Notes: a model not told the origin generated them from the sequence alone. DNA of 64,000 nucleotides from Alphaproteobacteria bacterium (GCA_965221125.1 CBDCRW010000004.1:256001-320000), one strand, 5' to 3'. Numbered from the stretch's first letter, positions 48,330 through 55,026 are shown. Translations and numbers: made by a program.

Positions 48330-49475
48330 CTACCACTGGGAGCGCGCCTGGATAGGCCAGATGTCCACCAGCGTGTCGCCACGCACGCAGTGATAGACGT
48401 CGTAGAGCAGGAGCGTCTGGTAGCAGTGCGGCACGATGCACTCCAGCGCGTCGCCCACCTGCGGCTGCGACGCGCCCTCCGGCACGGTGACGCGGCCCAT
48501 GTCGTCGCCCACCAGCTCGTAGAGCGAGTCCGGGTGCGCGCCCGAGGCCACGCGGGGCGGGAACTCCTCGCGCTGCAGCTCCTTGATCCCGGCGTCGGTG
48601 ACAACGAATTCGTCCCGCGCGCTGATCACCGTGGTGCGCACGAAGAGCGATGTCTCGAAGGGATGCGGGTTGTCGGGCTCGAATGGCGTGTCGGCGTAGT
48701 TCACGTCCATGAAGATGTAGCTGCCGGCCTGGCACTCGGTGAAGAGCCCGGCGGCCGCGTCGATCGCGTAGGTGCCGGTGCCGCCGCCGGAGACGATCTC
48801 GGGCGCGAGCCCCTCGGCCGCGAGACGCTCGCAGAGCGTGACCAGCGGCGCCGTGCAGCGCTCCTGCTCCGCGCGGCGGGCGGCGAAGTCGGGCTCGCGC
48901 TGAAAGGAGCCGTTGTAGCCCTGTATACCGGCGTAGACAGCGCCCTCTGTCCCGGCGATGTGGCGGGCCAGCGCCAGCGCATCGTCTGCCGAGACGAGGC
49001 CGGTGCGCCGGCCGCCCACCTCGAAGTCCACCAGCATGCGGAGCGGCTTGCCGTGCGCCTTCGCCGCCTGTGCGAGGCGGTCCACCACCGCCGCATCGTC
49101 GACGGCGACGAGCAGCCCGTCCGCGCGGGCATTGAGCCGGGCGAGGCGCGCGATCTTGGGCTCGGTCACGACCTGGGAGAAGAGCAGCACGCCCGGGATG
49201 CCGGCATCGGCCATCACCTCGGCCTCGGCCAGCGTGGCGCAGCACTGGCCGAGCGCGCCGGCCGCGATCTGGCGCTTCGCCACCTCCACGGACTTGTGGA
49301 TCTTGGCGACCGGGCGGACCCCGTGGCCCTCCCTGCCCAGGTAGTTGGCGAGGTAGGCGATGTTGCGCTCCAGCCGGTCGAGGTCGAGCACCAGCGCCGG
49401 CGTGGACAGCATCGTGCGCGAGCCCTGCCGGCCGATCAGGGGTTCGTTGGGGCCGCGCTCTCCGATAGCGCTCAT
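48330..49475 (-). CDS. DSD1/D-threonine aldolase family (fold III PLP) enzyme
   Basis: TPALVLD, RPVAKIHK, RRTG, SGGGTGT, QAGSYIFMD, PHC. Confidence 0.88.
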   Translation of the reverse strand: MSAIGERGPNEPLIGRQGSRTMLSTPALVLDLDRLERNIAYLANYLGREGHGVRPVAKIHKSVEVAKRQIAAGALGQCCATLAEAEVMADAGIPGVLLFSQVVTEPKIARLARLNARADGLLVAVDDAAVVDRLAQAAKAHGKPLRMLVDFEVGGRRTGLVSADDALALARHIAGTEGAVYAGIQGYNGSFQREPDFAARRAEQERCTAPLVTLCERLAAEGLAPEIVSGGGTGTYAIDAAAGLFTECQAGSYIFMDVNYADTPFEPDNPHPFETSLFVRTTVISARDEFVVTDAGIKELQREEFPPRVASGAHPDSLYELVGDDMGRVTVPEGASQPQVGDALECIVPHCYQTLLLYDVYHCVRGDTLVDIWPIQARSQW

Positions 49476-49623
49476 GTGAGTTCCTCGCTCTTGGTTGATT
49501 GCCGTCTGCTCGCGGACGGAGCCGTGTCGCACCATGCTTGTCGCGCGGCCATCGTGGCGACCGGATCAGTGGGGACCGAGCATATCGATTGTTCGGGTTT
49601 CGTCAGATGGGATCGTGACTTGA

Positions 49624-51715
49624 CAGGAACATTTTTTAGTCATGGCTGAGAGGGCGGGATGACCGAGAGCGGGCAGGCTTGGGCCGATGAAGGTCCTGGC
49701 CGAGCTTGGCTGGGCGGCTGCATGGGGTCCGCGGGGGCCGGTAGGGCTCGGTTTTCGGGCTCGCCGGGCAAAGCGATCCCGCCGCGCCGTTCGACGGCGC
49801 GTCCCGTCGCGCTCTGCGACGCGGTTACGCCCGCAGGATCATGCAGCGGGCGCGATCAGGATCGCGTCGAGAGCCTCCTGGGCGCGGGCGGCATAATGCC
49901 GGTTGGCCTCGGGCAGGAAGCGGAAGCGCCCGTCGCAGCGCACGATGGCGATGGCCGCGTTGGTCAGGCAGGAGAGATTGCGCGGCAGGTGGCGCACGTA
50001 CGCCCGGCAGCGGTCTTCGTCATAGGTGAAGTCGCGCACGTAGTGCAGCCGGTTCTCGATGTGCCAGTGATTGCGGACCAGAGCCAGAAGCTCCTCGGGC
50101 CCGGCGCGGTCTGCGCCGAGCGAGGTCAGGCTCCAGGTCACCTCGACGCTGCGCTCGCCGGTCTTGAGGATCTCGCGCTCGCGTTCGATGCGCATCGCCT
50201 GGCGGCGTCCGTGAAGGTTGGCGTAGCCGTCCCATTCGGCAGCGGAGAGGTCGACGACGGCGCAGCGGCGGCGCTCGATGCGGCCATGGCCCTTGTCGAC
50301 GGTTTCGTGCCAGGGCGCGTCGGAGAAGTCGATCGCCTTGAGGTCTTCGAGGATGGTCTCCTGATTGTCCTTCACCGCGGTGACCACGTAGTCGGCGCGA
50401 CGCCCGAGCAGGCAGCGCGCGGTCTCGTGCTGGGCGTGCATCGCATCGAGGGTGACGGTCCGGCCTGCGAGGTCGAGACTGCTGGAGAGTTCGCGCACGG
50501 CGGGGATCTCGTTGCTCTTTCTATCGACCTCGACCTGTCCCAGGACCATGCCGGTCTTGTGCACCAGCGCCGCGACCATCATGCGCCGCCCGTCTTCGGT
50601 CTGCTTCGAGGCGCCGCGCAGGTCCTTTCCGTCCATGGCGACCGGGGCGTGCGCGCCGTCGTGCTGGCCGGTCCACCGGCCGATGGCGTTGTCCAGCGTC
50701 TCCGGCGGCAGGGCGGCGAGGATGTTGTGGAAGGTGGTGATCGCGGGCGCGGTGTAGCGCTTCTTCGAAGGGCTCCAGAACGCGCCGACCGCCTCGAGCT
50801 GCTCCTGCGAGAGCAGGGCGGCGAACTGGGCGAAGGCTGTCGAGCCCCGGTAGCCGGCAAGGCGGGCGGCGACGGCAACCGCCAGCACGGTCTTCAAGGG
50901 ATAGCGCTTGCCCCGGGCATGGCGGCACTCGGGCACCTCGCCCAGGCACTCGAACAGGCTGCGCAGCCGGGGCGCCGTCATCGGCTCGCTGTGTTGCTCG
51001 GCGTTCCAGTTCGCCGGGATCTCGGCCCGGCTCAGCGCTTCGGCGGCGCCATCGCTAAGTTCGAACACGAAGACCTCCTTGGGCTGGCCGTGGTGGCGCC
51101 AGCGCGGAGCAGCTCCGGGGTCACGGGCAAAGCCGCGCGTCATCCCCAGCGAGCGCCAGTTCGACGCGCGGTAGCAGGTGCCGGCGAAGCGCGCGGGATC
51201 GACGAAGGTCTCGGCCAGGAGCGCCGGGTATCCATGCACCGCCTGGGTGTCCGCAGACAGCCGCCGCAGGCTCAGCCCCAGAACCCGCGAGGCCAGGTTG
51301 GGAACCCGCTCAGGCGTCAGGATCACGAAGCGCGAGTTGTTCGCGATCAGATGCAGGCGCCGGAACTGCTGCTCCGCCGACCAGCCGATCCAGCGGTCGC
51401 GCGCGGCCAGCTTGAACGCGCCCGGCTGCCAGCCGATCAGGGCGAGCCAGGTCTCGCCATGCACCGCGACATGGCGCAGCCCCTTGCCGACGACGCCGTG
51501 GAATCGCAGGTAGTGGTGCTCCTCCACCAGCCGGTCCCAGCGCCGGTGCTCCCGCGCGCCCCAGGTCGGGCGCACCGTGACCGCACGCAGATCAATGGAC
51601 GAATCCAGGCCCGGCAACGTCGCCATGGCCGCTACACTGCCACAGCGAAAACGAAATGACCAGCGCCGCGATCACCTCACGCCGCTCGCCGGGCGGACAA
51701 AAAACGAGCCCTGGG
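49624..51715 (-). mobile_element. ISAs1-family insertion sequence carrying DUF4338-transposase fusion
   Basis: imperfect ends CAGGAACATTTTTTAGTC (49624) and GACAAAAAACGAGCCCTG (to 51713); GTGACTTGA repeated at 49615-49623 and 51716-51724. Confidence 0.75.
49839..51626 (-). CDS. DUF4338 (Druantia DruA-like) domain fused to ISAs1 DDE transposase
   Basis: N-term HHYL, WIGWS, NNSRFVIL, NLASRVL, ETFVD, GTCYRASNW; C-term DGKDLRG, KSNEIPA, DAMHAQ, KDNQ, HGRIERR, RNHWHIENRLHYVRD...EDR. Confidence 0.9.
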   Translation of the reverse strand: MATLPGLDSSIDLRAVTVRPTWGAREHRRWDRLVEEHHYLRFHGVVGKGLRHVAVHGETWLALIGWQPGAFKLAARDRWIGWSAEQQFRRLHLIANNSRFVILTPERVPNLASRVLGLSLRRLSADTQAVHGYPALLAETFVDPARFAGTCYRASNWRSLGMTRGFARDPGAAPRWRHHGQPKEVFVFELSDGAAEALSRAEIPANWNAEQHSEPMTAPRLRSLFECLGEVPECRHARGKRYPLKTVLAVAVAARLAGYRGSTAFAQFAALLSQEQLEAVGAFWSPSKKRYTAPAITTFHNILAALPPETLDNAIGRWTGQHDGAHAPVAMDGKDLRGASKQTEDGRRMMVAALVHKTGMVLGQVEVDRKSNEIPAVRELSSSLDLAGRTVTLDAMHAQHETARCLLGRRADYVVTAVKDNQETILEDLKAIDFSDAPWHETVDKGHGRIERRRCAVVDLSAAEWDGYANLHGRRQAMRIEREREILKTGERSVEVTWSLTSLGADRAGPEELLALVRNHWHIENRLHYVRDFTYDEDRCRAYVRHLPRNLSCLTNAAIAIVRCDGRFRFLPEANRHYAARAQEALDAILIAPAA

Positions 51716-51720
51716 GTGAC

Positions 51721-51750
51721 TTGACGAGTCGATACCCGGACCAATATCGT
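51721..51750 (+). promoter_or_regulatory. putative sigma70 promoter for leader RNA/NYN unit
   Basis: TTGACG-18 bp-TATCGT. Confidence 0.45.
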
Positions 51751-51756
51751 GTCCAC

Positions 51757-51830
51757 CTTCTATGGACCCCATCGTTCCCTCGGGCACGGTGGGTATTGAA
51801 TGGGGCCGGCATTCGCCGGCCCATTTTTTT
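51757..51830 (+). ncRNA. putative small structured RNA / attenuating leader upstream of NYN RNase
   Basis: hairpin 51766-51794 followed by terminator hairpin and T7; 5' end inferred from promoter. Confidence 0.5.
51799..51830 (+). terminator. intrinsic terminator upstream of the NYN start codon
   Basis: AATGGGGCCGGC-ATTC-GCCGGCCCATT-TTTTT, ending 13 nt before ATG 51844. Confidence 0.8.
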
Positions 51831-51843
51831 CGAAGGGGCGTCG

Positions 51844-52403
51844 ATGTCGGTTACGGCGGTCTTCATTGACGGCGGATACCTCGACAAGGTCCTGTACCAC
51901 GACCACGCCAACAGGCGAATCGACTACGCGCGTCTCGCCGGTACCATGACGGGAGACGGCGAGCTCTTGCGTGCCTACTATTACCATTGCCTGCCGTATC
52001 AAAGCAGCCCGCCCACCGAGGAGGAGAAGCGACGCTACGCGGCGAAGCACCGGTTCATCACCGCTCTCCTCCATCTCCCCCGATTCGACGTGCGATTGGG
52101 CAAGCTCGCATACAGAGGGCGAGATGAGCGCGGCAGGCAGATCTTTCAGCAAAAGCGGGTCGACCTCATGCTAGGAGTCGACATGGCTCTCCTGGCTGGA
52201 AAGGGCCGGATAGCCAGAGTCGCCTTGTTGGCCGGTGACAGCGATTTCACGCCGGCGATCGAAGCCGTCAAGCGCGAGGGGTCCTTACCACTCTCTGGCA
52301 CGGGAGTCGTTCGGATCAGACGACACCCAGCCGCGAGCTGGTAGAGATATGCGATGAACGCCGCGAGCTCACGGCGGCGCTTGTTGATTCGATAGGCCGG
52401 TAG
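51844..52403 (+). pseudogene. NYN (LabA/DUF88, PIN-like) RNase with -1 frameshift at GGGG 52278-52281
   Basis: VFIDGGYL, QKRVDLMLGVD, AGDSDF; one extra G restores GVLTTLWHG...SRELVEICDER to TAG 52403; could be a sequencing error. Confidence 0.8.
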
Positions 52404-52454
52404 TCCAGTCAGCGAAGATTTATCGCCCGACGCCGGTGCCTAGGGAGAACGGAC

Positions 52455-53009
52455 ATGGCAGACGACAAGAACCAGATGGAAGGGCAACAGGGGCCGACGG
52501 CGCCGGCGGCGGGGCCAGCGCGGGCGCTCGATCACGTGGGAATCTCGGTGCCCGACATCGATGCGGCCGTCGCCTGGTACCGCGACATCCTCGGCTGCTA
52601 CGTGCTGATGGAGCCGGTCGAGGGCTACGCCGACGAAAGCTACTTCGGCCAGATCGTCGCCGACATCTTCGGCGCCGACTTCCAGGGCATGAAGATCGCG
52701 CACCTGGCGACCGCGGACGGCGTCGGCATCGAGCTCTTCCAGTTCGTCGCCAACGCGCCGCAGGAGGAGCACTTCGCCTACTGGAAGACTGGCATCTATC
52801 ACATCTGCATCCTCGACCCCGACATCGAGGGCCTGGCGAAGCGGATCGACGAGAGCGGCGGCAAGCAGCGCAGCAAGGTGTGGAAGCTCTGGCAGGACAA
52901 GCCCTACAAGGTCTGCTACTGCGAGGACCCGTGGGGCACCATCATCGAGGTGAGCTCCCACCCCTACGTCATGGCCTGGTCCAACTTCATCCCCCGCCAC
53001 GCGGACTGA
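52455..53009 (+). CDS. VOC/glyoxalase family protein
   Basis: DHVGISVPD, GIELFQF, GIYHIC, EDPWGTIIE. Confidence 0.9.
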   Translation: MADDKNQMEGQQGPTAPAAGPARALDHVGISVPDIDAAVAWYRDILGCYVLMEPVEGYADESYFGQIVADIFGADFQGMKIAHLATADGVGIELFQFVANAPQEEHFAYWKTGIYHICILDPDIEGLAKRIDESGGKQRSKVWKLWQDKPYKVCYCEDPWGTIIEVSSHPYVMAWSNFIPRHAD

Positions 53010-53117
53010 GGGCCGGCGTCGGGCGGTGACAACGGACTCGCGCCCGCCGGCCCCTGCGATATACTCCGCACGCGAAATTCCGCCTCCCGCCCCGCAATCA
53101 CCGAGACGCGCCCGGCG

Positions 53118-53399
53118 ATGAACGCGTTTGCCGACCTCATCCACGCCGTCTTCTCGATCTACATCTATCTGCTGATCGCATCCGCGCTCTTCAGCTGGCT
53201 GGTGGCGTTCAACGTGGTGAACACGAGCAACCGCTTCGTGTTCACGCTGCTGAGCTTCCTCCACCGCATCACGGAGCCGGCGCTCCGGCCCATCCGGCGC
53301 ATCATCCCCAATCTCGGCGGGATCGACATATCGCCGATCATCCTGATCCTGATCCTCTACTTCGTCCGCGATCTCATCGTGGACAACATCGTCCAGTGA
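53118..53399 (+). CDS. yggT: YggT family membrane protein
   Basis: [31 protein letters not shown]. Confidence 0.92.
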
Positions 53400-53469
53400 T
53401 CCGTCCGCCGCCGGCGCGCGAGGGCGACCGCCGAGCCGGACGACGCTCAGCCTTACGCGAGGTAAACCC

Positions 53470-54351
53470 ATGAGCGACGCGGTCATCATCGACGGCAAGG
53501 CATTCGCGGCCGATCTCAGGGCCGAGGTCGGGCGCAAGGCGGCGCTCTTGAAGGAGAGCCACGGCCTCGTTCCGGGCCTCTCGGTCGTGCTGGTGGGCGA
53601 CGACCCCGCGAGCCACGTCTACGTCCGCAACAAGGGCAAGGCGACCGTCGCCGCCGGCATGGAGTCGCAGGAGTATCGCCTGCCCGCGACCGCGAGCCAC
53701 GCCGAGGTGCTGGAGACGGTCGAGCGGCTGAACGCCGACGATGCCGTGCACGGCATCCTGGTGCAGCTCCCCCTGCCCGATCAGGTGGATTCCAACGCGA
53801 TCATCAACGCCATCGACCCGGACAAGGACGTGGACGGCTTCCACACCGTCAACGTGGGCCGGCTCACCACGGGGCAGGACAGCCTCGTGCCCTGCACGCC
53901 TTTGGGTTGCCTGCTGATGCTGCGCCACTTCGTGGGCGCGCTGAAGGGCAAGCGGGCGATGATCGTCGGCCGCTCCAACATCGTCGGCAAGCCGATGGCG
54001 TCGCTGCTGCTGCGCGAGCACTGCACCGTGACCATCGGCCACTCGCGCACCCAGGACCTGCCCGGCGAGTGCCGCCGCGCCGACGTCCTCATCGCGGCCG
54101 TGGGGCGCGCCGAGATGATCCGGGGCGACTGGGTGAAGCCCGGCGCTGCCGTCATCGATGTCGGCATCAACCGCGTGCCGGCGGGCGAGAAAACGAGGCT
54201 CGTGGGCGACGTCTGCTTCGAGGAGGCGGTGGAGAACGCGGGCTGGATCACGCCCGTGCCCGGCGGCGTCGGCCCCATGACCATCGCGTGCCTCTTGAAG
54301 AACACGCTCACCGCCGCCTGCCGCCGCCACGGCATCGAAGAGCCGACGTGA
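53470..54351 (+). CDS. folD: methylenetetrahydrofolate dehydrogenase/cyclohydrolase
   Basis: [42 protein letters not shown]. Confidence 0.97.
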
Positions 54352-54423: not shown

Positions 54424-55026
54424 TTACCTCCCTGTATAGCTCGTGCTGCTCTGGTTAGCTTCGGAGGTTGAATTATAGACAACTACGGGAAGCGCTCGAT
54501 TTCCAAGGCAGAGATCAACTACATATCTTCTGATTAGTTCCTGTTGCATTTCAATGTCGGCCCAACCCTGAGGTGAGTAGCCACCTTCAAAAATCTCCAA
54601 CGCTTCGACTTTATAATTTAGACTGCGAGCTATTGCGTGAAGAAGTGTGGCGAGGAGCTTCTCTCGCTCTTGACATACTCTTATGTTGTAGCGCTCCTCC
54701 CTTATTCTCTGTTCATCATTGCCCAAATATTCAGATACGACTTCATCGTCCCGTCTAGGCTGCTCAGAACCAAGATTTTGGAAGTATGCTCTCCATGCGG
54801 TTAGTACATTGGAATTGTTTCGAAACTCAATTTCTACCAAATTCAAGGCGGAAACGTGATCGGGCAATAGTCGAGTACGACGCGTCTTCATTAGAGTGCG
54901 AAAAATATCCATGCGGCGCTCTCGTTTGGCGCGCCTATACTCCATCCACCTTGCAATGAGCACGGCGACTGCTGGTCCCAGAAACAGCGCAACAATCGTC
55001 ACAATTTCGCTCATAGACCAAGTCAT
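54424..55026 (-). CDS. AT-rich hypothetical protein with N-terminal TM helix (DUF6680-like)
   Basis: LGPAVAVLI...RMDIFRTLMKTR...HVSALNLVEIEF, GYSPQGW; purine-rich RBS; composition unlike flanks. Confidence 0.75.
   Translation of the reverse strand: MTWSMSEIVTIVALFLGPAVAVLIARWMEYRRAKRERRMDIFRTLMKTRRTRLLPDHVSALNLVEIEFRNNSNVLTAWRAYFQNLGSEQPRRDDEVVSEYLGNDEQRIREERYNIRVCQEREKLLATLLHAIARSLNYKVEALEIFEGGYSPQGWADIEMQQELIRRYVVDLCLGNRALPVVVYNSTSEANQSSTSYTGR

Follow-up and report, generated by a model that had tools for sequence, protein, structure and literature searches.

A conserved hairpin RNA paired with NYN nuclease genes, possibly restraining the nuclease, and its copies in phage-like DNA

The window analyzed in this work is a stretch of 64,000 nucleotides (nt) from an Alphaproteobacteria bacterium (GCA_965221125.1 CBDCRW010000004.1:256001-320000), and its module at 51721-52403 joins a predicted small RNA to a stand-alone gene of the NYN nuclease family, both on the + strand. 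Within 51721-51843, a sigma-70-type promoter is followed by a 26-nt hairpin, here called hp1, a 9-nt linker and an intrinsic terminator, which together stand ahead of the NYN gene. The promoter scan gave TTGACG (51721-51726) and TATCGT (51745-51750) with an 18-nt spacer as the sole promoter-like match within 49000-54000, exactly where an earlier reading of the sequence, the original prediction, had placed it. The hairpin of that prediction, at 51766-51794, is real, but its pairing was one base off: its comparative register is 51768-51793 (C68-G93 and so on), with 8 base pairs, a U.C mismatch, 2 further base pairs and a CUCG loop. The conserved core of hp1 is GUUC / GNAC, its closing pairs are CC / GG, and an invariant AU (51762-51763) lies 4 nt before the stem. 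The A/U-rich linker UAUUGAAUG (51794-51802) contains a second AU(G) and leads into the terminator (51803-51830), the top match of the terminator scan, which has 8 G-C pairs in a stem at 51803-51822, the loop AUUC and then A + U7 (51823-51830). The T7 was correctly said to end 13 nt ahead of the NYN start codon, although this ATG lies at 51844 and not at 51845. A Shine-Dalgarno-like GAAGGGG (51832-51838) can be read between them. The predicted short RNA is about 75-80 nt long (51757-51832), with the 5' end placed from the position of the -10 element and the 3' end from the U tract.

The RNA region folds more stably than expected from its composition. The minimum energy of 51745-51845 is -48.9 kcal/mol compared to -35.1 +/- 3.6 for shuffled sequences (z = -3.84), and none of 200 shuffles was as good. 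A scan of 50500-53500 against Rfam 15 found no family at its gathering score, the best being AniS with 21.1 bits against 50, and Tandem Repeats Finder at a minimum score of 30 found no repeat in 51600-52450. Likewise, a search of 51000-53000 found neither transfer RNA (tRNA) nor transfer-messenger RNA (tmRNA) genes, and such an identity was rejected for this reason. As a separate observation made by eye, the linker holds a second arrangement of AU, 3-6 nt and a hairpin.

The gene behind the RNA encodes a protein of the NYN family PF01936 (E = 5.1e-13, 50.2 bits against a cut-off of 24.2) and matches no other Pfam family. Its N-terminal 146 codons lie in one frame (51844-52281), which runs on to a stop at 52342-52344, while the C-terminal part (VLTTLWHGS...DER...) continues in the -1 frame (52278-52403, stop at 52401-52403). 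The frame is broken by the loss of one G from the G run at 52278-52281, where GGGG is one base short of the protein alignment and the orthologues read REGVLTTLWHG. Contigs assembled from three runs of one sample (depth 15-23), which may be the assembly's own source, are identical to 51686-52450, so the 1-nt deletion is present in the reads. The window protein is 86-94% identical to the intact orthologues of 186 amino acids (aa) in three species of the same genus. Across 38 orthologues D9, D107, D113, D132, S133, D171 and R173 are invariant; the shifted segment matches the orthologous C-termini, including D171 and R173, which are therefore out of frame in the window gene. An AlphaFold2 model (predicted local distance difference test, pLDDT, 95.6) is closest to the LabA-like NYN structure 2qip (E = 5.4e-8, template modelling (TM) score 0.60/0.67) and also resembles the NYN domain of MARF1. 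The fold, the PF01936 profile and the conserved acidic residues thus place the protein among the NYN proteins and, as the original prediction had it, outside the toxin families of type III toxin-antitoxin systems.

A profile search of PDB sequences found no solved sequence relative at E <= 0.01, NCBIfam gave no match with an NYN orthologue, and of the defence libraries, PADLOC has nothing stronger than weak matches to NYN and HEC-09. In plasmid and phage collections, the NYN relatives do not exceed 32% identity across the bulk of the protein, with one 46-residue piece at 48%. LabA-like NYN proteins (PF01936, group NYN.COG1432; 2qip; MARF1 NYN) share the fold and the acidic residues with the window family, but in contrast to the RNA-linked family described here, no RNA partner is described for them in the literature searched. 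A PIN-superfamily survey gives the function of PF01936 proteins as unknown (PMC5499597).

The leader is conserved well beyond the window. In the three same-genus species with an orthologue, conservation extends from the -35 element to the ATG but not into the DNA further upstream; the two stems do not change at all, whereas the terminator loop varies. A search with one genome per species returned 191 NYN relatives, and the best 80 of these 191 were kept; they are 49-73% identical, apart from the query G006 itself (100%), and span many phyla, including Acidobacteriota, Gemmatimonadota, Chloroflexota, Planctomycetota, Nitrospinota, Firmicutes, Armatimonadota and Proteobacteria. At most orthologue loci the upstream DNA folds into a conserved 5' tail, a hairpin of 24-28 nt, an A/U-rich linker and a GC-rich terminator. 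The family hairpin starts with CC(C), ends with (G)GG, has the core GUUC / G(G)NA(C/U) and carries a stable tetraloop. In an alignment of 44 sequences (A2), 96.4% of the cells are paired and six of the ten pairs have changed on both sides, in 73 cells. The covariation is 0.561 against 0.183 in shuffles, of which 0/500 reach the observed value, and slid partners give at most 0.107. The AU 4 nt before the stem is invariant in all 44 rows. Independent support came from a metagenome pattern in which three stem pairs were left free: all three were complementary in 23 of 28 distinct sequences, where chance would give about 5%. The check set beforehand in the original prediction, for a conserved and covarying first hairpin among NYN homologues, was thus positive.

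Because hp1 contains many G.U pairs and scores far lower on the reverse strand (about 15 bits against 46-49 bits on the plus strand with R1, a covariance model of hp1), the conserved structure is that of a + strand RNA. A DNA operator was rejected on the same grounds. Translation of the leader was also considered. A leader peptide starting at the AUG at 51762 does not fit the compensating pair changes in the stem after the AUG and the lack of a Shine-Dalgarno sequence upstream; additionally, hairpins of type B carry AUC, AUA or AUU where AUG would be expected. An N-terminal extension of the NYN protein was rejected too, as the open frame through the leader is not kept and orthologues differ by 2 nt in the U tract. 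Among 27 sources scanned with Rfam 15 (the window, 19 NYN loci and seven viral loci) no family was found. Nothing matches at the motif in the 19 NYN loci, where RsmY reached 27.6 against 57 on L078, and the viral loci gave only tRNA-clan matches and weak matches below threshold. In the literature on NYN with toxin-antitoxin systems, PF01936, RNA motifs and LabA, the accessible texts describe no such RNA or NYN-RNA pair, although the supplements of RNA-motif surveys may contain an unnamed motif.

With R1, hp1 was found upstream of NYN and on the same strand in 49/80 orthologue loci. The order of RNA, terminator and RNase noted in the original prediction is conserved: at 42 loci, including the window and two same-genus species, hp1 is followed by a terminator after 3-30 nt (median 10), whose stem ends 17-50 nt (median 25.5) before the start codon, and the predicted RNA is 71-99 nt long. 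As the gap between terminator and start codon is too short for a promoter, transcription of NYN has to come from read-through. Of 50 hp1 loci, 34 have a promoter with a score of at least 8/12, in many cases with a perfect TTGACA, that ends 14-22 nt (median 17) before the stem, and this fixed distance puts the start site about 10 nt before hp1. The original prediction saw no protein antitoxin next to the NYN gene, which agrees with the lack of any recurrent family among the 125 longest flanking open reading frames (ORFs) of 66 loci, a set of ORFs of at least 80 aa. These flanks mix housekeeping genes with some insertion sequence (IS), recombinase, reverse-transcriptase, AbiU2, Uma2 and SNF2/HIRAN genes.

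The RNA is also found as a unit of its own. Six Firmicutes loci (L078, L090, L058, L059, L060 and, as judged by eye, L057) place the hairpin-terminator unit downstream of NYN under a promoter of its own, TTGACA-17-TA(T/C)AAT, and with its own terminator, and NYN has a separate promoter. At L078 and L057, no gene follows the RNA unit on that strand. In two of these loci, tandem copies of a roughly 50-nt element (...CATTGAAATAAAATGAGCAG...) separate NYN from the RNA unit behind it (L059, 2047-2250; L060, 779-930).

In cellular genomes, hp1 is linked to NYN. R1 matches strongly at one place in the window's own genome (46.6 bits; the next is 17.9 bits), and among 61 relatives, only the four genomes with an NYN orthologue reach 44.9 bits, with every such match just upstream of NYN. 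A further 150 genomes of the phylum gave only three matches, at 25-26 bits and none near NYN. A dispersed regulon was rejected, as the 25-26-bit matches elsewhere are terminators between convergent genes or coding DNA. The linkage was also seen when the search started from the RNA. A type-A pattern found 38 metagenome loci, of which one had too little 3' sequence, and NYN lies directly downstream on the same strand in 30 of the 37 assessable loci. One other match (L146) was rejected as a chance hit, being antisense in an open frame of 488 aa (a kinase gene by eye) and carrying the AU only because the pattern fixed it.

Six of the 37 assessable loci are RNA-only, score 42.6-51.5 bits and lie in phage-like DNA. 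Their RNA adjoins a tail-completion/Neck1 gene (L147), an HNH endonuclease (L132) or a DnaD-like loader (L138), is followed by a DNA methyltransferase after a breakpoint inside the terminator (L119), or has no annotated neighbour (L141, whose hp1 is the same as that of L132). The sixth, L136, is apparently the same element as the IMG/VR contig L153, in which a gene with weak resemblance to head proteins is followed by hp1 and a large terminator hairpin, with no NYN in the 35-kb record. Type-B patterns gave nine matches in viral contigs. Seven of these lie between genes, each with AU at -6/-5, a feature that the pattern left free; the other two (L175 and L199) lie in coding DNA without the AU and were discarded as chance matches. 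In L176, the RNA stands beside an NYN gene truncated to the first 42 profile positions, and in total eight viral contigs (L153, L174, L176 and L194-L198) carry the RNA without an intact NYN. Full modules are present in four viral contigs (L155, L158, L159 and L160).

Some of the phage copies have a distinct context. In L194, L196 and L198, hp1 (33.6-38.8 bits) heads phage tRNA arrays, with the first tRNA 9, 167 and 276 nt downstream, respectively. Since CheckV puts these 39-92-kb records at a completeness of 7-18%, the phages would seem to be very large. The replication genes of L195 lie behind a TATAAT promoter, hp1 and a longer, terminator-bearing RNA. Two observations on these contigs stand apart: L194 (1-5025), L196 and L198 hold 15, 9 and 3 tRNA genes within 5 kb, and L174 has a tmRNA-like match (2746-2819, - strand) of 43.9 bits, below the gathering score of 47, just upstream of the phage hp1 unit.

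The module resembles the type III toxin-antitoxin systems ToxIN, CptIN and TenpIN in several ways. Type III loci have a promoter, an RNA, a Rho-independent terminator and a toxin gene in this order, so that the antitoxin exceeds the toxin, as described in PMC5086642. The two have in common one promoter, a small RNA, a Rho-independent terminator and an endoribonuclease gene, with RNA outnumbering enzyme in type III. The lack of a protein antitoxin, a patchy distribution prone to horizontal transfer and RNA look-alikes in phages are also shared, and escape of a phage from ToxIN by RNA mimicry is reported in PMC3475682. However, the type III antitoxin is a tandem array of short repeats, while here there is a single hairpin with no repeats, and the type III toxins belong to the ToxN, CptN or TenpN families, while here the fold is NYN/PIN-like. 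In type III, the toxin processes the RNA and binds it as a pseudoknot, and the RNA neutralizes a harmful protein; no pseudoknot is predicted for hp1. Unlike in type III, the RNA may also be a separate unit downstream of the gene, and about 30% of the orthologues have no recognizable RNA. The absence of repeats and the different nuclease fold set the module apart from the known type III families ToxIN, CptIN and TenpIN, to none of which it belongs.

Other known arrangements fit only in part. The E. coli genes rnc, rne and pnp have autoregulatory 5' leaders that form feedback loops of ribonuclease genes, and like the NYN leader they place a structured hairpin at the start of a nuclease messenger. 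The NYN leader differs in having a full terminator after the hairpin and in occurring also apart from its gene, as well as in phages that lack NYN. The pemK RNA motif, upstream of PemK toxin genes, is likewise a conserved hairpin before an RNase toxin gene, but its structure and gene family are different. A terminator/antiterminator switch of the riboswitch or attenuator type was not found, as hp1 and the terminator are 3-30 nt apart and both are present in the minimum-energy folds; by eye, no conserved alternative pairing was seen.

Our data thus describe an RNA and a nuclease that possibly form a previously undescribed pair, with the nuclease perhaps restrained by the RNA. The stand-alone Firmicutes units, the exclusive linkage to NYN in hosts and the RNA-only phage copies suggest that the RNA is trans-acting rather than a mere leader. 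The account we favour, with slightly less than even confidence, is that the hp1 RNA is a trans-acting partner of NYN, probably an inhibitor made in excess, which phages have copied as a decoy. A strong promoter would drive an RNA of about 80 nt, made at that size and composed of a short 5' tail with the invariant AU, hp1, the A/U-rich linker and the intrinsic terminator, and the NYN nuclease would be made at a low level through read-through of the RNA terminator only. The abundant RNA may then bind and inhibit NYN in trans, by analogy with a type III RNA antitoxin but with a single hairpin replacing the repeats, so that only free NYN would harm the cell. Phages with the RNA but without NYN may, again by analogy, use it as a decoy. 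A further step, which we regard as tentative and rather doubtful, would be to see here an RNA-protein system of a new kind, for toxin-antitoxin or abortive infection, in which the antidote is a single hairpin and the toxin a PIN-like NYN protein. Phages, including large ones with hp1 as the leader of their tRNA arrays, would then make hp1 decoys to disarm it, and as these decoys sit on tRNA operons, NYN itself may attack tRNAs. The original prediction, which had offered an RNA antitoxin or an autoregulatory leader, is supported in part. Its conserved, covarying RNA and gene order hold, while the repeats and ToxN-type toxin of type III are absent, and we only infer the function in the term RNA antitoxin.

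Several observations weigh against inhibition in trans. In 25/80 orthologue loci (about 30%) there is no R1 match at E <= 0.05 save two weak ones, and some loci without hp1 carry other hairpins with a terminator. At L074 and L077, a promoter leads directly to the NYN gene and no RNA unit lies downstream. An orthologue in G125, a genome of the phylum sample, (207.7 bits) has no hp1 in its 3.5-kb locus even with filters off, which means that NYN can exist without a recognizable hp1, and an obligatory antitoxin would not predict this. The NYN gene is intact in 76/80 genome loci. The rows of A2 were selected by a filter that demanded a hairpin. Five of the contigs behind the decoy (L194-L198), together with L174, have no NYN in their records, but these are fragments with an estimated completeness of 7-72%, so that the absence is weak evidence. 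Finally, at the heads of tRNA arrays and inside operons, phage hp1 may have a function of its own.

That hp1 and the terminator form a cis-acting leader only, which throttles and stabilizes the NYN messenger and which NYN may itself bind or cut, is unlikely in our view. It would account for hp1 and terminator forming the NYN leader in 49 of 80 loci with no promoter fitting before the start codon, and for the window's genome having one strong match and no other host target in sight. Paralogues of 40% identity also carry two hairpins ahead of the start, one of them terminator-like, and a compensatory change distinguishes L013 from L014. This explanation falters at the Firmicutes units, which are separate, lie downstream of NYN and lead into no gene, and it leaves the RNA-only phage copies unexplained. 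Moreover, since hp1 and the terminator do not overlap and coexist in the minimum-energy folds, there is no visible switch between alternative structures.

The phage copies could also be explained the other way around, with hp1 as a recognition tag. NYN would then be a defence RNase that cuts phage transcripts bearing hp1, such as leaders of tRNA arrays and late messengers, and the copy in its own leader would provide negative feedback that is relieved when phage RNA competes. The three tRNA arrays headed by hp1 at 33.6-38.8 bits and its positions in phage late or replication regions agree with this, as does a host in which hp1 occurs once, in NYN's own leader; orthologues without hp1 could recognize other tags. 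Phages would, however, be expected to lose a tag that marks their transcripts for cleavage unless hp1 serves a phage function, and the stand-alone units in Firmicutes have no clear role except as a buffer, which is again inhibition. We consider the tag distinctly improbable, and the phage copies remain, in the account favoured here, candidate decoys for an inhibited nuclease.

Promoter-proximal antitermination elements are known from phages as nut and put sites. An hp1 of this kind, allowing RNA polymerase, alone or with a phage factor, to read through the terminator and turn on NYN only then, would explain its constant place some 10 nt behind the predicted start site and ahead of the terminator, and why it precedes terminators, tRNA arrays and operons in phages. 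Sequence conservation across phyla would also fit a universal target such as RNA polymerase. Nevertheless, there is nothing behind the Firmicutes units for polymerase to read into, the neighbourhood holds no conserved factor gene, and host hp1 is tied to NYN and not to varied operons (30/37 matches, and one strong match in its own genome), which leaves antitermination with a slim chance. Lastly, the idea that there is nothing special here, only a promoter-like site that arose by chance, a GC-rich hairpin and some other transcript's terminator, in high-GC DNA that folds readily and could have arrived with the neighbouring IS, is practically untenable, as the elements lie outside the IS, no + strand gene upstream needs a terminator, and conservation with covariation across phyla already refutes it.

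PF01936 proteins run to thousands, and a covarying RNA tied to one family of them is a testable handle. If the RNA does inhibit the nuclease, RNA-antitoxin systems would no longer be confined to the three known ToxN-like families but would include another fold and another design of the RNA, and the RNA-only phage copies would be a natural record of counter-defence. Two cultured organisms hold the module, Caulobacter vibrioides OR37 (L050) and Anoxybacillus pushchinoensis K1 (L097), which makes bench tests practical. At the latter locus, a small ORF resembling a HicB antitoxin (by eye, about 2120-2410) follows NYN, and SNF2 and HIRAN genes flank the locus.

Other leaders were seen at related genes. 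The Longimicrobium-type orthologues (L065, L071, L073, L075, L080, L081, L085-L087, L091, L092, L094 and L098-L101) have long GC-rich hairpins in place of hp1, yet their terminator, CCCGCCGC...GCGGCGGG, is retained 22-32 nt ahead of the start codon; these leaders may be a second RNA class. The window's genome has a second NYN gene, about 40% identical, at 1495-2079 of locus L017 (G000:C4:13037-16507). In the hairpin before this paralogue, the 3' arm contains a GGAGGG ribosome-binding site, and a TTG start codon lies inside the U-rich tail. L013 and L014 have a compensatory change in a hairpin matching that of L017, and the 3' arm is repeated at the ribosome-binding site.

Immediately upstream of the module lies an ISAs1-family insertion sequence of 2,090 bp (49624-51713, - strand), whose transposase (49839-51626) has a DruA-like N-terminal domain. 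The transposase matches NF033564 of NCBIfam with 205.6 bits (cut-off 70) and the Pfam families DruA, DDE_Tnp_1_assoc and DDE_Tnp_1. Twelve copies in the 4.6-Mb genome fix both ends of the element, which read CAGG...TTTTTT, and the transposase, the multiple copies, the terminal inverted repeats and a target duplication together identify it as a member of the family. The 9-bp duplication GTGACTTGA, read from the sequence and the IS ends, has its left copy at 49615-49623 and its right copy at 51716-51724, the latter overlapping the -35 hexamer of the RNA promoter. Left of 51713-51715, the read depth climbs from about 17-23 to 200-650 (about tenfold or more). The three same-genus species have no IS at this site, and the same gene for a pyridoxal phosphate (PLP) enzyme lies divergently upstream in the two that were checked. 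With a 1-nt deletion in NYN and an IS in the -35 region, the module is decaying in this genome, while the RNA gene is intact. A general trend in which the toxin decays first is unsupported, given the intact NYN genes at all but four of the genome loci.

Two minor features of the surroundings can be added. The left IS junction recreates a TTGACA hexamer reading into the ISAs1 element, and the DruA-like domain of its transposase resembles that of Druantia. Further downstream in the window, a DUF6680 gene (54424-55026, - strand; E = 4.3e-50) encodes a product rich in Lys, Glu and Asn, and its A/T-rich DNA amid high-GC surroundings looks like foreign DNA.

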